In this document: positions 4,194 to 58,853 of the stretch, piece after piece
Layout: each line of letters opens with the position of its first letter
Position numbering within the stretch: position 1 is the first letter of the stretch
IMG/VR virus record: IMGVR_UViG_3300031548_000001
Coordinates: 31,021 to 95,020 of that record
DNA from: a virus
DNA length: 64,000 nt
Direction: 5' to 3' (one strand)
Program-made: the position numbers and the translations under genes
The notes under the pieces: model-generated
Database searches by the model: none
The model's input: the letters and a program-made list of their open reading frames with translations, nothing else
What the model was told of the DNA's origin: nothing

Positions 4194-7100
4194 TCAGCCC
4201 AGACCGGTGATTTTGTGGATATTACGCTGCATCATGTTCACCAAATGGGTTTCGCCTTCTTGGCTATTTGCCCATTGCTGCGGGGTCATACCGGACGGAA
4301 TCATCCCGATAGTAATCTTGGCGCCGTCCACATGCACCGGGGACGCAGATGCTGCCGAAGTAACCGGCGACATGGACGCCGCGTTTTTCATCACCGGGAA
4401 CCCGCCGTTGCCAACTCGTAGGTTTTCGACGGCTTGCACGCCGCCCAAACGCCGCACATCGGCCTGAGAGAAAACCACCTCACCACGGTGAACCACGCCG
4501 GCGGGTTCATTCACGCCACCGGCCCCCGTGTAGCCGCCTTCGCTGAAACCACCTGAGAGTGATGCAATCAAAGCGAGGGCTGCGATACCGCCCGCGAGGG
4601 CAAGGCCCCACGAGCTGATGCCACTGGCCACAGCACCTGCAGTTTTAACAGGCAGTGCAGAAGCCTCGTTGGCGATGACATTGGCCGTCTCTTCTTTGTG
4701 CCAAGCAATACTTGCGAGGCCCATGGCAGCACGCTTCACGATCCACGTGGCGAACATGTCGGAGATGGCTCCTATGACGCTGTTGAGGATCGTGCTCCCG
4801 ATGTTTTGCAGCGCATCGCCCCATGTCATCGTCCCGTTGATCAGACCTTGGATGCTGGAGCTGAGTCCTTGGAACACTCCCTGAAATGAGGTTTCAACGC
4901 CGCGTGCGACGATGTCGGCCTCGGTGCCGAACCGATCAATGGTGTTGATTACGCCTGCCTGGACACCGTCACCAGCACCCAACGGCGTCGACTTTGTGAT
5001 TGTTAGGCTATTGGCGCTTCGTTCTGCGCGAAGGCGGTCGATATTGGCCTGACGTGCCGGATCTGGGCTTAGTTTTTCCGCCTCTTCCAGCAGTCGGATT
5101 CGTTTTGAGATCTCCTCATTTTGAGCCTTGAGAAGGGCAACGAGCAGACGGTTCTTCTCCTCACTCGTGAGAAGCCGGTCAGCGTTCACGAGAGCGATCT
5201 GCTCTTGGCTGGCAGCTATTTTCCGTGAAAGCGCCTGCTCTTCTTCGGCGGCAGCATTCTTTTTCCGCGTGTTGATCAGTTCAACCTCGTCCTGAATCTG
5301 ACGCTCGATGGCGGCCTCGTTTTCCTTATTCGCAGCCAGCTCTGCCTTTTTGATGTCAGCAATCTGGTTCTCCAACTCCATCTTCTGAATCGTGAGCTCG
5401 CGCTCGCGTTGAGAAAAAGCGATGAAGGCATCACGGATCTCTTGGGGCGTGGAAGCGCCCGCGGTATTAAACGGCTGGGCGATTTGGGAGTTAACACCAT
5501 TCAGCTTCCCCTGCAGGTAATCTAATTTGGCCTTAGAAGTAGGCAGGTTCTCTACGTAGAGTTTCTGGAACTTATTTTCGTTCGCCGACGTCGCTGCTTC
5601 CTTCGTTGCGAGTGCGACACGGCGAGCGATCTCAGACTTTTGCTTTTCGAGTTCCGCAGTCTGCTTCTTGAGCGTATCGAGGCGATCATCCTCGAGGAGG
5701 TTGTTCGCGACAATGGCAGCGCCACGGTCATCGATCAGCTTGATGATGGAGTTGAGCCGGTCGATCTGCTGCTTGGCGATACGTCCCTCTTCGGTGTCCG
5801 TCGTCGGGTTTCCACGGCGGTCACGATTCTTCGGGATTGCCGCATAGGCCTTCTCGGCCGCAGCAAGCTGAACCAGCGCCGCGCTACGGGCACGGGCAGC
5901 CTCCTCAGAGCTCCTCATTTCACCGGCCTGTTTAATCAAGCTCGCGTTGATCCGGCCGTTCGTGCCTTCCAACTCGAGCTGAGCATCACGCATCTCGCCG
6001 TAGGCTTCGATCGCTCCGGTGATACGCTGTCCGATGATAACCGTCGCCGCTGCCATGGCGCCCACCGTGGCTGTGAAGGCCGATGCCGCCACCACTGCCG
6101 CCGGCACAGTCGCCGCGAAGACTGCCAGGCCAGCAACAGAACCAGCGAGACCGGCGATGAACACGCCAAACGCCACGGCCTCGAGTGCCTTGCCCATGTC
6201 GCGAACGGCCTGCGGATTGTCGCGGGCGAAATCCGACATGTCTCGGATCAGTTCGGTGAGGCCCTTGATCGTGTCGGAGAACTCGTCCGCAAAACCCGCA
6301 TCGTTAATCGTGTTCTTCAGGTCGAACAGCGATTTATCGAGACGGTTCAATTCTGCCTGAAGCGTCTGTGCGGCTTGTGGAACAAGACCACCAAACTGCT
6401 TTTGCAGTTCGGCGCCCAGCTTAGGCAGCAGGTCACGAGAGAGGACTTGACCCTGCTCAAGCATCTTGCCGAGTTGCTGGGTGCTGACACCCATAGCCCT
6501 TGCCGAGAGCTCAAACGCACCGGGAAGACGCTCACCCAACTGACCGCGCAACTCTTCGGCCGCTACCGTGCCCTTCGATAGCATCTGGGAAAGTGCGCGA
6601 AACACACCTTCCATTTCGTCCGCCTTGAGACTCATCACCGCTCCGGCCTCGCTGAACTGGGTGAAGATCTCGCGAGTTTGATCAGCCGCCAAGCCAGACA
6701 CGCTCGCAGCGATCGAGAAAGAGGTGAAAGGCTTGAGAACGCCGTTCATGCTCAAGCCGAGGCGATCCGCCTCACCAGCCACGTAGCCGTAGGAATCGCC
6801 GGCAGCCTGGGCGGAACCCTGTGACGCAAGCAGGCCCATCTTTACGCGCTGCATCTCCAGTTCGGCATCAACCAGCGCTTGCCCCATGCGCACGGCGGCG
6901 AGCGTAACCGCCGATGACATGACTGCCTGCAGTCCAGTGAAGGCCAGTGCAGCCGAGTTGGCTGAAGACGCCTGATCCTTCTGGGCGTTCGTGTTCGTCT
7001 TGGCCGTGGTCGCCGCCTGTTGCTGAGCATCGGACAACTTAACGAGGCCAGTCGTCGCCGATGCCAGGTGTCCACGGAGTCGCTCCACCTCTGCCGACAG

Positions 7101-7481
7101 TCGCCGCTGTTCCGCCTGCAATCCGGCAATAGAGTTCTTCGATCCCTCGAACTGAAGCGCCATCTTGGCGTTTTCAGCAGCGAGCTTTGCCTGAGTTTGC
7201 GTCAGCGTCGCATTCTCCGCAGAAAGCTTCGTGACCGCAGCGGAGGCCGCAGTGGTCATCGTGCGTAGCTTGCTCAACTCCGCATTGAGCAACTGGAGGT
7301 CCTTCGAGTGCCCCTCCGTAGCCGCACGCAACGCAGCACCAAGTGCATCAGCCTCATTGGCTGACTTCTTCGCCGATTCTCCCATCAGCTTGAACTGAGA
7401 GAGGACGTTTTTCAGGACCTCGAGGTCGGCCTGAATACTCAGCAGCAGTTGAATCTTCTCTTGGTCCACGGTGACATGCAT
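4194..7481 (-). CDS. Tail tape measure protein
   Basis: 1095 aa, Ala-rich coiled coil, ALSQMLSKGTVAAEELRGQLGERLPGA tape-measure motif, C-terminal GGYTGAGG...AGVVHRGEVV; true start may be the GTG a few codons downstream. Confidence 0.92.
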   Translation of the reverse strand: MHVTVDQEKIQLLLSIQADLEVLKNVLSQFKLMGESAKKSANEADALGAALRAATEGHSKDLQLLNAELSKLRTMTTAASAAVTKLSAENATLTQTQAKLAAENAKMALQFEGSKNSIAGLQAEQRRLSAEVERLRGHLASATTGLVKLSDAQQQAATTAKTNTNAQKDQASSANSAALAFTGLQAVMSSAVTLAAVRMGQALVDAELEMQRVKMGLLASQGSAQAAGDSYGYVAGEADRLGLSMNGVLKPFTSFSIAASVSGLAADQTREIFTQFSEAGAVMSLKADEMEGVFRALSQMLSKGTVAAEELRGQLGERLPGAFELSARAMGVSTQQLGKMLEQGQVLSRDLLPKLGAELQKQFGGLVPQAAQTLQAELNRLDKSLFDLKNTINDAGFADEFSDTIKGLTELIRDMSDFARDNPQAVRDMGKALEAVAFGVFIAGLAGSVAGLAVFAATVPAAVVAASAFTATVGAMAAATVIIGQRITGAIEAYGEMRDAQLELEGTNGRINASLIKQAGEMRSSEEAARARSAALVQLAAAEKAYAAIPKNRDRRGNPTTDTEEGRIAKQQIDRLNSIIKLIDDRGAAIVANNLLEDDRLDTLKKQTAELEKQKSEIARRVALATKEAATSANENKFQKLYVENLPTSKAKLDYLQGKLNGVNSQIAQPFNTAGASTPQEIRDAFIAFSQRERELTIQKMELENQIADIKKAELAANKENEAAIERQIQDEVELINTRKKNAAAEEEQALSRKIAASQEQIALVNADRLLTSEEKNRLLVALLKAQNEEISKRIRLLEEAEKLSPDPARQANIDRLRAERSANSLTITKSTPLGAGDGVQAGVINTIDRFGTEADIVARGVETSFQGVFQGLSSSIQGLINGTMTWGDALQNIGSTILNSVIGAISDMFATWIVKRAAMGLASIAWHKEETANVIANEASALPVKTAGAVASGISSWGLALAGGIAALALIASLSGGFSEGGYTGAGGVNEPAGVVHRGEVVFSQADVRRLGGVQAVENLRVGNGGFPVMKNAASMSPVTSAASASPVHVDGAKITIGMIPSGMTPQQWANSQEGETHLVNMMQRNIHKITGLG

Positions 7482-9038: not shown

Positions 9039-9067
9039 CATGCACGCCGCCGTTTCCTGCTCGTCAA
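9039..9067 (-). promoter_or_regulatory. Late-type promoter TTGACG-N17-TGCATG
   Basis: Directly after a terminator, before the tail tube gene. Confidence 0.55.
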
Positions 9068-10543: not shown

Positions 10544-10869
10544 TGTGGCATGAGCGGCACGGTTTGGCCGGCGAGTGGGTGAGTGCAGTCGGCGAGAAAT
10601 TGGATTTGCCCGTCGCGCACGAATGAGTGGCAGCGCCGCGCCGGGATGTCGTCAGGGCCAGCGCCGCCGTAGGTCACTACGAGACTCGGCTCGAATGTAG
10701 GGCGAACCATATCGCCGTTCCATCGCCACTGAGCGCCGTTGCTCGCAGGCTTCGACGTCCACACGCCATGCTCGATCCGGCAGCCAGGGCAGAAGAACAC
10801 GACGTCGGGCATGTTGACGCGCTCACACGTGGGCGCGGCGATGCGGTGCAGGACGGGGGGCGTGCTCAT
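10540..10869 (-). CDS. DUF6527-like Cys/His protein
   Basis: FCPGC..H, W.WNGD..RPTF.PS, CHSFV.DG.IQFL.DCTH.LAG motifs. Confidence 0.75.
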   Translation of the reverse strand: MSTPPVLHRIAAPTCERVNMPDVVFFCPGCRIEHGVWTSKPASNGAQWRWNGDMVRPTFEPSLVVTYGGAGPDDIPARRCHSFVRDGQIQFLADCTHPLAGQTVPLMPQ

Positions 10870-12825: not shown

Positions 12826-12855
12826 AAAAAAGGGGCTCCTTGGTGTGGAGCCCCT
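12826..12855 (-). terminator. Intrinsic terminator
   Basis: AGGGGCTCC/GGAGCCCCT + U-run. Confidence 0.8.
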
Positions 12856-12864
12856 GCGTGAAAG

Positions 12865-13077
12865 TTATTCGTTGCCACCAGGGTTGGTGTCGTCGGCATC
12901 GGCTGGCACTTTATCGCCAGGCTTGGACGCCTTATCCTTGACCGGCTTGAACTGCTCGGGGGCGTGCTTTAACAAGCCTTCGCCCTGCTTTTCGGTGACC
13001 TCGATCACATCGCCATTTTTGACGATGCCGACGCCAGCCAGATTCTGCTCCTCTTTACCAACGTAACGGAATTTCAT
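12865..13077 (-). CDS. Small capsid-associated protein
   Basis: 70 aa downstream of MCP, GDVIEV motif, leader and terminator present. Confidence 0.6.
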   Translation of the reverse strand: MKFRYVGKEEQNLAGVGIVKNGDVIEVTEKQGEGLLKHAPEQFKPVKDKASKPGDKVPADADDTNPGGNE

Positions 13078-13173
13078 TTCAGGTTTTGTTTCGGGTTTCT
13101 GCGACTGCCAGTGAATCCGGCAGCACTCGTTCTGTATCCAAATTTCAAATATCGATTGAGCAGCCCTATAGTC

Positions 13174-13236
13174 AAGAGAAACCCGGCCCCCTTCAGGCCG
13201 GGTTTCATACCCTGAAATGAACTGATCTATCCCGAC
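13174..13236 (-). ncRNA. Candidate sRNA antisense to the phage CCCGAA/CCTGAA-ATGAA start motif
   Basis: TTGACG -35 at 13271-13266; predicted +1 at 13236; seed GAUCAGUUCAUUUCAGGGUAU; terminator hairpin GAAACCCGGCC/GGCCGGGUUUC-UCUU; no ORF. Confidence 0.6.
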
Positions 13237-13282
13237 GCGATTACGTGTTGAGGCAAAAACGAGTTCGTCAATCTATTCGCAC

Positions 13283-13316
13283 AAAAAAGGCCCGGACCAA
13301 TGACGGCCCGGGCCTT
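13283..13316 (-). terminator. Intrinsic terminator after MCP
   Basis: AAGGCCCGG/CCGGGCCTT + U-run. Confidence 0.8.
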
Positions 13317-15022: not shown

Positions 15023-15931
15023 TCACTCGGTCTTGAGGCTCGTCTGGTTGCGCCAGAACTTCGCGAAGGCCTTCCGGCAGTCGGCCACGCCGAGGCTGCT
15101 GGTATAGGCGAGCGAGTCCGGGTTCATCGGCACAGGCGTGAGGCTGATCTCGTATAGCTCGGCTTCCTCGATGCCGTAGCCGTCGTCCTTGTAATACCAG
15201 ATGCCGCCAATGCTCAGGCCCTTCAGGTGGCCCTCCATGAGCTTGAAGCGAACATCGCGCAGGCCGGGCGCGTTCGAGATGGCGCCACGCACAGCCAAGC
15301 CTGACTTGTCGGTGCCGATCTTCTCCCACGAGCCGGCGAGGTGATCGACGGCGTTGCGGTGGTCGATCAGGATGACCGGGTTCTTCTTGAACGCGGCCAA
15401 AGTCTTGTCGAAGGCGCCCGGCAGCACGTAGTCGCCGCCGCGGTCGCGCTCGGTCGTTCCGACGAACGTGGAGGCATAGCCCTCGATGATGACGTCACGG
15501 TAATCGACGATGCGCGTGGCCTTGTCGTCGCCAGGCACAGGCTCGGTGACGGCCACGGCCTTCTTGTCGCCATCGGTCGCGAGCTTAATCTCTGCGCCGA
15601 TCTCGAAGTTGCGCACGCGCTTCGCCTGCATGAGCGCCTTGGTGACTTCGAGGTCCGTGGCCTTCACGGTTATCTCGGTGTCGGTTACGAGCAGCACTCC
15701 CTCGCGGGATGGAACCGCCAGCTGAATGACGAGCGAGTCGCCCTCTACGCGAAGAGCCTTGCCGGCGACGCGCTCGCCCTCGGAGGCGAAGAACACAGCC
15801 TTACCGAGCAGCTCCTTGTGAGCATCAGTCTTAACGATTGCCGGAGCCGGGGGCGCGACTCGCTTCTGGCCTACGCGAAGAACTTTTGCGGGGGCGAGAG
15901 GAGTGCGTTTGACCTTGAGGATTGCCGGCAT
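15023..15931 (-). CDS. Prohead protease (HK97 type)
   Basis: EGYASTF, DRGGD.V.PGAF, LIDH, GLSIG, LYEISL..VP.N motifs. Confidence 0.92.
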   Translation of the reverse strand: MPAILKVKRTPLAPAKVLRVGQKRVAPPAPAIVKTDAHKELLGKAVFFASEGERVAGKALRVEGDSLVIQLAVPSREGVLLVTDTEITVKATDLEVTKALMQAKRVRNFEIGAEIKLATDGDKKAVAVTEPVPGDDKATRIVDYRDVIIEGYASTFVGTTERDRGGDYVLPGAFDKTLAAFKKNPVILIDHRNAVDHLAGSWEKIGTDKSGLAVRGAISNAPGLRDVRFKLMEGHLKGLSIGGIWYYKDDGYGIEEAELYEISLTPVPMNPDSLAYTSSLGVADCRKAFAKFWRNQTSLKTE

Positions 15932-15937
15932 GCATCT

Positions 15938-15966
15938 CGTGTCGAAATGCGGACGGGCTCTGTCAA
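15938..15966 (-). promoter_or_regulatory. Late-type promoter TTGACA-N17-GACACG
   Basis: After a terminator; ATG 6 nt downstream (leaderless). Confidence 0.55.
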
Positions 15967-52643: not shown

Positions 52644-53240
52644 TTACTCTTTTTTCGAGAGCACAACACGAATCAACCGGCCATGGTTTTTGCCGATGCC
52701 ATCGAACAAATTTTTGATGGATCCGATCACGATACCGTCTTCGCCATAGTCAAAACGGCTCGGAGCACCTGTGATCTTATCTAAATTGTCCTCGTTCACG
52801 CGAACCTCGAAAATCGTCGTGTTTCCGATGTCGGTGCGGATGACCTTTGCGGAGTCAGGGCGATCCATGAACATCTCCACGGTCTTTTTCAGGAGGGCTT
52901 CGACCGGGGCCATATCCTTCGGCTGACTGAAAGACAGCGCCTTGGCGCCGCCAGTGACGTTCCGCGGGCCGCTCTCGTCTATACTGATATGGCTCTCTCG
53001 GTTGATCTGTTTCGCCAGGTTGCCAATGATCGCTTCCAGCGCCCGGAAATGCTTACCTTTGGCACCGATCACACGAGGAATGTCGTCCGGTGCGGTCTTT
53101 ATGATAAAAGCCACGAGCGGGCCATGGACAGATTGTGTGATTGAGACCTCCTTTGGTTTAACGACAACGCCCCGAACAAGGGAGAGGAGCATGTCGTTCA
53201 AATATGCAATAAGGTGATCGGTTTCGTGTATCGCGTTCAT
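52644..53240 (-). CDS. Tandem KH-domain (KhpA-like) RNA-binding protein
   Basis: Repeat 1: LV..VV.KP.EV.I...D..RVIGAKGKHFRAL..I (GxxG loop); repeat 2: D.P....V....N...ITG...G..IGSIK.L..GIG....R. Confidence 0.8.
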   Translation of the reverse strand: MNAIHETDHLIAYLNDMLLSLVRGVVVKPKEVSITQSVHGPLVAFIIKTAPDDIPRVIGAKGKHFRALEAIIGNLAKQINRESHISIDESGPRNVTGGAKALSFSQPKDMAPVEALLKKTVEMFMDRPDSAKVIRTDIGNTTIFEVRVNEDNLDKITGAPSRFDYGEDGIVIGSIKNLFDGIGKNHGRLIRVVLSKKE

Positions 53241-53266: not shown

Positions 53267-53307
53267 TCTGACGACAAATCGCTAAACTGCTTGCGAATGC
53301 ATGTCAA
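53267..53307 (-). promoter_or_regulatory. Promoter TTGACA for the KH gene
   Basis: 29 nt to GTCAGA. Confidence 0.55.
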
Positions 53308-58809: not shown

Positions 58810-58853
58810 TCTGACGTGGTTTAGAGACCACGAAGAATTATTAATGTAAAGAG
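58810..58853 (-). promoter_or_regulatory. Early-type promoter CTCTTTACA
   Basis: 29 nt to GTCAGA. Confidence 0.6.

Follow-up and report, generated by a model that had tools for sequence, protein, structure and literature searches.

The c4 antisense RNA of phages P1 and P7 (immI) and the related CI RNA of P4 are encoded upstream of the gene or genes they repress, in the same orientation, and pair with the ribosome-binding and start region. Such an RNA may also repress the same transcript from which it derives. The c4 RNA is cut from the operon transcript, serves immunity and has two short matching sites in one operon. At lambda pR'-tR' (6S RNA), a single late promoter upstream of the structural genes is followed within ~60-200 nt by a terminator, giving a short abundant RNA in an arrangement that serves Q antitermination. 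The sar RNA of P22 and the OOP RNA of lambda are ~70-77 nt long, have their own promoter and terminator, and lower phage gene expression by base pairing (review PMC12197685). Here we describe a minus-strand unit that lies just downstream of the major capsid protein gene in a phage genome from the IMG/VR database (virus record IMGVR_UViG_3300031548_000001). The window analyzed is a stretch of 64,000 nt, bases 31021-95020 of this 95,020-base record, which is linear and ~85% complete. The unit is predicted to yield an RNA of ~63 nt whose 5' end mirrors the phage's own leader and start codon motif. Our tentative reading, to which we give somewhat less than an even chance, is that this late small RNA or leader transcript masks the start of the adjacent gene (13077; genes are named here by the position of their start) and a few identical starts (46131, 52506 and 58431/dnaN).

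Like c4, the unit is directly upstream of the next gene (13077), in the same orientation, and complementary to its start, a match not seen in relatives. Unlike c4, it has its own predicted late-class promoter and a terminator-like hairpin, and the mirrored sequence is a genome-wide start motif; we found neither an Rfam C4 match nor a processing signal for the unit. The sar and OOP RNAs lie on the strand opposite a single target with full complementarity, whereas the RNA predicted here lies on its targets' strand and mirrors only 11-17 nt, in the manner of a trans-encoded small RNA. Its putative targets are 0.1 to 45 kb away and so do not overlap it on the opposite strand as those of cis-encoded antisense RNAs do. 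The lambda pR'-tR' arrangement is matched in that a late promoter is closely followed by a terminator-like hairpin, whose tail ends ~63 nt after the predicted start, with structural genes beyond. Unlike in lambda, at least five late promoters are present, of which this one alone has a hairpin, and neither a Q-like factor nor a qut-like site was identified, a Q-like gene not having been searched for.

For the start motif itself, the closest published analogue comes from the Cluster K mycobacteriophages, which carry start-associated sequences (SAS/ESAS) next to start codons, at genes where the intergenic gap is larger (Pope et al. 2011, PMC3203893). The SAS is a fixed 13-mer containing AGGAG that lies 3-7 bp before the start; nearly all copies are in one orientation, about half have an inverted repeat ahead, the sequence is missing from the host, and each genome contains one inverted copy (PMC3203893). 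Whether an RNA or a protein reads the SAS is unknown, and no RNA was proposed or shown for the inverted copy (PMC3203893). The leaders described here resemble the Cluster K SAS in being start-adjacent, phage-specific, in one orientation and not in the host. They differ in being variable (C)CCGAA-type runs that lack a Shine-Dalgarno sequence and abut ATGAA. If the analogy holds, the SAS would be the published counterpart of these phage-private starts, including the unexplained single inverted copy per genome.

We counted ~45 leader-type starts in the window's genome (G000), in which nearly all genes are on the minus strand. Two near-complete relative genomes were read, and these contain 46 (G003, 84 kb) and 29 (G001, three contigs, 82 kb) such starts. 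Each leader is made up of repeated (C)CCGAA, ACGAA or CCTGAA units and abuts ATG(A) without a Shine-Dalgarno sequence, and the flavour next to the ATG differs by phage lineage. The window contains 14 copies of the motif C[CT]GAAATGAA, where 0.52 would be expected: 13 lie at gene starts on the minus strand, and the remaining one, at 13212-13221 within the unit, is on the plus strand. Across the 95-kb genome GAAATGAA is found 31 times on the minus and once on the plus strand, and CCCGAA favours the gene strand by 113 to 9. Most of the 30 two-unit leader matches in the 5.3-Mb Opitutus metagenome-assembled genome (MAG) G001 fall on three phage-like contigs (C51, C71 and C100), and in a second Opitutia MAG the two-unit count is at control level. 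Judged from this distribution, the (C)CCGAA-repeat leaders are a phage-private signal and not one of the host.

The minus strand between the capsid terminator and the next gene reads TTGACG (13271-13266), 29 nt, GUCGGGAUAGAUCAGUUCAUUUCAGGGUAU from 13236, an 11-bp hairpin and UCUU, and every element of the unit that an earlier note on this sequence had described is present. The hairpin arms GAAACCCGGCC and GGCCGGGUUUC (13206-13196 and 13188-13178) are 100% complementary over 11 bp. The predicted ~63-nt RNA folds with a minimum free energy (MFE) of -29.4 kcal/mol (z = -3.1), and its 5' 30 nt are unpaired in this fold. No Rfam family reaches its gathering score for the unit, the weak matches being terminator hairpins only. 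With its hairpin and UUUCUCUU, the 3' end has the form of an intrinsic terminator, yet the strict terminator scan did not list the hairpin. The earlier statement that the unit holds no open reading frame has to be corrected, as a 44-codon frame starts at 13208 and ends at 13074. This frame belongs to no family, has no leader in front and has no counterpart in relatives (the L005 unit, for example, contains no ATG). For want of a family and of conservation we rejected it as a gene, and it is probably spurious.

Table 1. Coordinates of the unit and of the features around it.
Feature	Position	Strand	Basis
Terminator of the capsid protease-capsid operon	13283..13314	-	GGCCCGGGCC...GTCCGGGCC then T6 run; inverted repeat I3
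Late-class promoter (predicted): A/T-rich stretch and -35-like TTGACG (13271-13266)	13266..13281	-	six-lineage alignment A2
Predicted ~63-nt RNA, 5' end inferred	13174..13236	-	29-nt spacing as at 15966 to ATG 15931 and 9067 to leader
Unpaired 5' stretch, inverted copy of the leader/start module	13207..13236	-	fold; antisense leader-likeness
11-nt core UUCAUUUCAGG, mirror of CCUGAAAUGAA	13211..13221	-	leader 11-mer comparison
11-bp G+C-rich hairpin and U-rich UUUCUCUU, terminator-like	13178..13206	-	inverted repeat I2; fold
44-codon open frame (ATG 13208), probably not a gene	13074..13208	-	open reading frame list
Sigma-70-like TTGACT-16-GATATT directly after the unit hairpin	13148..13175	-	consensus match only, 9/12
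Small hairpin CTGCCGG...CTGGCAG just ahead of the GCAGAAACCCGAA leader of the adjacent gene	13105..13123	-	sequence
Start region of the adjacent gene (CAAAACCUGAAAUGAAAUUCCG), best seed partner	13067..13088	-	inverted repeat
Adjacent 70-aa gene, weak DUF7210 match	12865..13077	-	Pfam E = 0.0022, below cut-off
Terminator of the adjacent gene	12831-12855	-	terminator scan
Plus-strand layout: sigma-70-like TTCAAA-17-TATAGT (13144-13172), hairpin, ATACCCTGAA-ATG-AAC-TGA	13144..13225	+	consensus scan; sequence

To this we compared five related lineages whose capsids are 58-61% identical to that of the window: L005, L006, L156, L157/L158 (= G003) and L226 (= G001). In each of the five, the capsid terminator is followed by an A/T-rich stretch and an invariant (T)TGACG; ~28-30 nt further on comes a structured RNA-like segment with a G+C-rich hairpin at its end, and beyond it lies the same small gene with an FKY/RYVG N-terminus. 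In alignment A2 of the six lineages (these five and the window) TTGACG is invariant, as are the A/T-rich element upstream of it and the distance from the capsid terminator, and a T-run lies at a fixed distance ahead of TTGACG in all six. The hairpin is followed by a good U-tract in L157 and L226 and by none in L005, L006 and L156. More distant relatives (capsid <=55% identical) lack the unit. From this pattern of conservation, the unit is very probably a real, conserved transcription unit. In L005 two copies of the palindrome GTGTTCGC[G/C]TGAACAC (1481-1496 and 1598-1613) flank the RNA unit, one of them within the promoter spacer, and resemble operator sites; no equivalent of the pair was seen in the window.

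The promoter belongs to a recurring module of a T-run, an A-rich stretch and TTGAC[GA], of which we found five occurrences in the structural region of the window's genome (13266-13271, 21195-21200, 15961-15966, 9062-9067, and -1958, outside the window). The box at 15966 (TTGACA) is exactly 29 nt before the ATG (15931) of the prohead protease gene (15023-15931), the box at -1958 is 30 nt before an ATG, and the box at 9067 (TTGACG) is 29 nt before a GATAGAGACCCGAA leader. A spacing of 29 nt had already been given as that of other phage promoters, and it is matched at the boxes at 15966 and 9067 and at 53307 (TTGACA-29-GTCAGA). The TTGAC[GA]-to-ATG pattern is repeated in G003 (49744) and in L003, a truncated contig from the metagenome scan, and the late module is also present in L005. 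These boxes, 28-30 nt before an ATG or a leader, appear to form a class of late promoters whose transcripts are leaderless or begin with a leader, and the spacing at 15966 would imply a leaderless late mRNA for the protease. Since the class keeps 28-30 nt before leaderless ATGs, the RNA start near 13236 that was originally predicted is credible. No -10 element is recognizable in the class, and the other four late promoters of the window's genome have no comparable hairpin.

The mirrored sequence stands out by its placement. Four gene starts (13077, 46131, 52506 and 58431) carry CCUGAAAUGAA, which the core UUCAUUUCAGG mirrors perfectly, and the core is the only gene-strand position in the genome whose complement is a leader 11-mer common to at least three starts. 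When the 95-kb genome was scanned with a third-order Markov leader model, the first 24 nt after the predicted start were the top antisense leader-like window (empirical P = 0.0005). One inverted copy of the motif per 64 kb is not rare in itself (~0.26 expected per strand, half of 0.52, a chance of ~1 in 4); its position is the unusual part. The seed had been described as the mirror of the leader/start consensus, which the inverted motif at 13212-13221 bears out. It had also been described as the only copy in that orientation, and this stands for C[CT]GAAATGAA on the plus strand of the window, with the reservation that a near-copy, ACTCCCTGAAATGAG at 4876-4890 (plus strand, within the 1095-codon gene 4194-7481), is the one other opposite-orientation leader/start-like word.

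Of the 45 leader-type starts, 23 can form a contiguous helix of at least 8 bp that touches the AUG, where dinucleotide shuffles of the RNA give 2.0 (P ~0.013), and duplex energies over all 45 starts are ~2 standard deviations better than those of shuffles (z = -2.0). The seed, predicted to be accessible, is complementary to its putative targets beyond chance, with the signal carried by the 11-nt core only. The duplexes listed in the earlier note were reproduced, that on 52506 with 17 bp and one bulge and those on 58431, 46131, 47459 and 13077 as proposed there. Its idea of one RNA covering many AUGs survives in the excess of AUG helices and falls short in that only the core is non-random and the best partner is the adjacent start. 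A loose duplex scan of the whole transcriptome found many coding sites with energies as low as that of the best start (52506, ~11th), so that starts were not singled out. When an ATG-anchored start weight matrix was scanned antisense, the unit ranked 5th in G000 and was not prominent in G003 or G001; k-mer and Markov tests were used instead because the matrix is too diluted by the variable leaders. At the remaining GAAAUGAA starts only 8-10 bp can form, and since the 8-bp cores are A/U-rich, such pairing probably has little effect unless a helper assists. The credible targets are the adjacent gene and the three other starts with an identical CCUGAAAUGAA.

The adjacent start is linked to the seed by a 16-nt inverted repeat (13073-13088 and 13206-13221) that is complementary at 14 of 16 positions (88%) with its arms 117 nt apart, and a second repeat of 9 nt joins the 3' arm of the hairpin to the leader of the same gene. 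The whole RNA pairs with the 13077 start region at a predicted -29.7 kcal/mol, compared with -17.8 +/- 3.0 in shuffles. In the MFE fold of a 197-nt read-through RNA, a helix of 11+6 bp closes the 5' end onto the 13077 AUG, with a pairing probability above that of 60 out of 60 shuffles. The FKY/RYVG N-terminus of this gene is common to the syntenic genes of L005, L006, L157, L226 and L156, and its hairpin-initiator-leader layout recurs at other leader-type genes. The sigma-70-like site directly after the unit hairpin may be its own promoter. Having a leader module and a terminator of its own, the gene forms a one-gene unit directly after the capsid gene, and given the sigma-70-like site as well it may be a separate message that the RNA meets in trans. 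A position directly after the capsid gene is typical of a head decoration protein.

These observations suggest the following course of events. The late-class promoter would start an RNA near 13236, and the hairpin with its U-rich tract (13178-13206 plus tail) would end most transcripts, leaving an RNA of ~60 nt. Its 30 unpaired 5' nt are an inverted copy of the phage's own leader-plus-AUG module, with the 13077 start region as closest source and partner. Such an anti-start RNA would mask the adjacent small gene at its AUG and the last leader unit, either in trans or, on transcripts that read through the hairpin, in cis by means of the predicted 11+6 bp closing helix. The same 11-nt core could reach the three other genes with an identical CCUGAAAUGAA (46131, 52506 and 58431/dnaN). 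Of this picture, the sequence features, the conserved promoter and hairpin and the statistically unusual position of the seed are observed, and transcription, both RNA ends and an effect on translation are inferred. The simplest history would be that a 5' untranslated module was copied in inverse behind the late promoter, one way in which an antisense RNA could arise.

The leader system offers some further observations. Leader-type genes at 58815, 52533, 39448 and elsewhere (minus strand) share CTCTTTAC(T/A)TT(T)AA, a short hairpin of variable sequence and then GT[CT]AGA[CG]ACCCGAA. Since the potential to form a hairpin is kept despite differing sequence, a 5'-terminal mRNA stem-loop is suggested rather than a protein operator. 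The minus-strand gene at 52644-53240 encodes a KhpA/KhpB-type KH domain (Pfam E = 7.5e-12) and has a TTGACA-29-GTCAGA promoter-like site and a leader of its own; its product may be an RNA-binding protein that reads the C-rich leaders. The transcribed strand seems to hold fewer words complementary to common leader 11-mers than expected: 1 in G000, where 3.0 are expected, and 0 in G003, where 3.8 are. These small numbers would fit avoidance of self-pairing with leaders.

Among the relatives, L005 has its own anti-leader 11-mer, a mirror of CCCGAACCUGA, 2 nt from the predicted 5' end, and this is the only such word in that contig. Apart from this partial exception, the seed is neither conserved nor does it co-vary with its putative targets in the relatives, as judged from G003 and G001. 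Antisense leader-likeness of the units gave P = 0.012-0.024 in G003, 0.031-0.037 in G001 and 0.036-0.064 in L005 and was not significant in L006 and L156. With the window excluded, the Fisher combined P for the relatives is 0.005-0.007, a marginal value, and a soft one because the null is mostly coding DNA. We found no further anti-leader unit elsewhere in G003 or G001, where the highest-ranking antisense windows fall in coding sequence or in the usual regions upstream of genes. In L237 (G001:C100), a 17-nt inverted copy of its own leader (10569-10585, mirror of CCGAACCGAATCACCCG) lies 36 nt inside the leaderless prohead protease gene. This makes two cases in which a predicted late transcript carries an anti-leader stretch, here at a different place.

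Several results weigh against masking of the adjacent start and its three counterparts. The null of the Markov model is mostly coding DNA and may flatter G-rich non-coding hairpin regions. With the core held fixed, RNAs with shuffled flanks find equally good best targets; the flanks add nothing beyond chance, and for a given core the long duplexes are for this reason no better than expected. Leader words in both orientations make up the intergenic region (repeats D2, D4, I1 and I4), so the seed could be a neutral local inverted duplication. Although both relative genomes keep leaders and unit, AUG helices of at least 8 bp form at 0 of 46 starts in G003 and 1 of 29 in G001, the chance level, and the excess of duplex energy is absent there (z = -0.7 and -0.3 against -2.0 in the window). 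Pairing with the adjacent start was not significant in L005, L006, L157, L226 or L156 by energy and shuffle tests. We discarded the idea that cis pairing is conserved: in MFE folds of long leaders from the relatives the 5' end does pair with the next leader, but shuffled 5' ends pair just as well. The -10 region of the unit promoter is not recognizable and varies among lineages.

In a different account, the unit is a promoter-proximal terminator or structured leader without any antisense role. It would attenuate or insulate transcription into the head-completion genes, much as at lambda pR'-tR' with its 6S RNA by-product, or act as a stabilizing 5' stem-loop, and the mirrored motif would be a neutral leftover of leader-word duplication. 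What is conserved across the six lineages is the promoter and the hairpin and not the 5' sequence, leader words surround the hairpin in both orientations, and an antisense 10-mer copy is, as noted, to be expected fairly often in 64 kb. The three lineages without a U-tract after the hairpin are likely to read through into the next gene. Such an account leaves it to chance that the seed falls exactly within the 30 nt that are predicted to be transcribed and unpaired (P ~5e-4) and that L005 independently has an anti-leader 11-mer at the equivalent place. Furthermore, with its own hairpin-initiator-leader module and sigma-70-like site the adjacent gene could do without this promoter, no such hairpin is found at the other four late promoters, and no antiterminator was identified, with the same limit on the search for a Q-like gene as above. 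We consider this account rather unlikely. The same low P value for seed placement speaks against the view that nothing here is functional, that TTGACG is inactive or the region a spacer between two terminated operons with a motif mirrored by chance. The missing -10, the absence of the seed from relatives and the lack of an Rfam match would all fit this view. It does not explain why box, upstream A/T element and spacing are invariant among lineages whose capsids have diverged this far, nor why the hairpin is kept with differing sequences, and we regard it as decidedly improbable.

The earlier note had gone further in the other direction and proposed a genome-wide role, in which one late ~63-nt RNA would act in trans as a master regulator covering the AUGs of about two dozen leader-bearing, mostly early and replication genes and shutting these off late or in lysogeny. 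AUG helices are possible at 23 of the 45 leader-type starts, and targets cluster in the replication region (dnaN, the KH protein, an RlpA-like protein and a protein with a dATP/dGTP pyrophosphohydrolase domain). Its promoter belongs to the late class, and the lack of leaders in two late operons would make them immune to the RNA. The leaders are phage-specific and not a host signal, and a phage-specific reader or regulator is therefore called for. Such a role nevertheless finds no support in G003 and G001, which keep leaders and unit without the seed, an outcome that the note itself had named as refuting its proposal. Most cores are 8-10 A/U-rich bp, the energies over the 45 starts are only ~2 standard deviations better than those of shuffles and are equally low at many non-start sites, the flanks do no better than random, some late genes (13077 and 8214) would also be hit, and no Hfq-like helper was identified. 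A master regulator of this kind is in our view unlikely. We hold the same doubt about its boldest form, in which the RNA would be a dedicated off-switch of the phage-private start system (~45 genes) from which the leaderless late operons escape, and which the KH-domain protein might read or help.

A last possibility is that the plus strand is the functional one, carrying an ordinary start of the leader type (A/T-rich promoter, 5' hairpin, ATACCCUGAA leader and AUG) with a frame of 2 codons. Its transcript would run antisense across the late promoter and capsid terminator and interfere with late transcription or pair with the minus-strand RNA. The sigma-70-like TTCAAA-17-TATAGT at 13144-13172 fits this, as do a hairpin, leader word and ATG in the ordinary leader-type layout, which can be seen by eye on the opposite strand in the window, L005, L006, L226 and L156. 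One inverted start-associated sequence is likewise held by the Cluster K mycobacteriophages (PMC3203893). Against it, the promoter match is at consensus level only (2 found against 0.6 expected), the frames range from 2 to 48 codons and are not conserved, nearly the whole genome is transcribed from the minus strand, and the conserved TTGACG promoter points the other way. We regard plus-strand function as very improbable. Masking of the adjacent start and of a few identical ones by a late RNA remains the reading we favour, tentatively.

The major capsid protein gene of the phage (13340-14920) is of the HK97 type. GenBank phages gave no DNA match and at best a capsid only 27% identical, leaving this genome without a close cultured phage. 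Capsid relatives were found in MAGs labelled Opitutus sp. and Opitutia and in one Opitutaceae MAG, and because of this the host is probably a member of Opitutia (Verrucomicrobiota). Closer capsid relatives are known as proteins (P0002, 73% identical, encoded on a 90.9-kb JGI contig; P0024, 78% identical, on a 120-kb ENA contig), and the metagenome scan yielded only the truncated L003 and one distant contig. DNA pattern scans of IMG/VR with TTGACG-N-GATCAGGTTCG, GATCAGGTTCGRGGTSGC and GATCAGTTCATTTCAGG returned, besides L005 and L006, chance matches only.

If the RNA is made and pairs as predicted, the unit would join phage-private start signals with phage small RNAs that act on the phage's own genes, in a group with Verrucomicrobiota hosts that has no studied members. 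On the modest reading, this would be post-transcriptional control by a local anti-start RNA that tunes the small gene following the capsid gene. If true, a mirror RNA driven by a late promoter would be a simple switch for a whole class of phage messages and a handle on how their leaders function.

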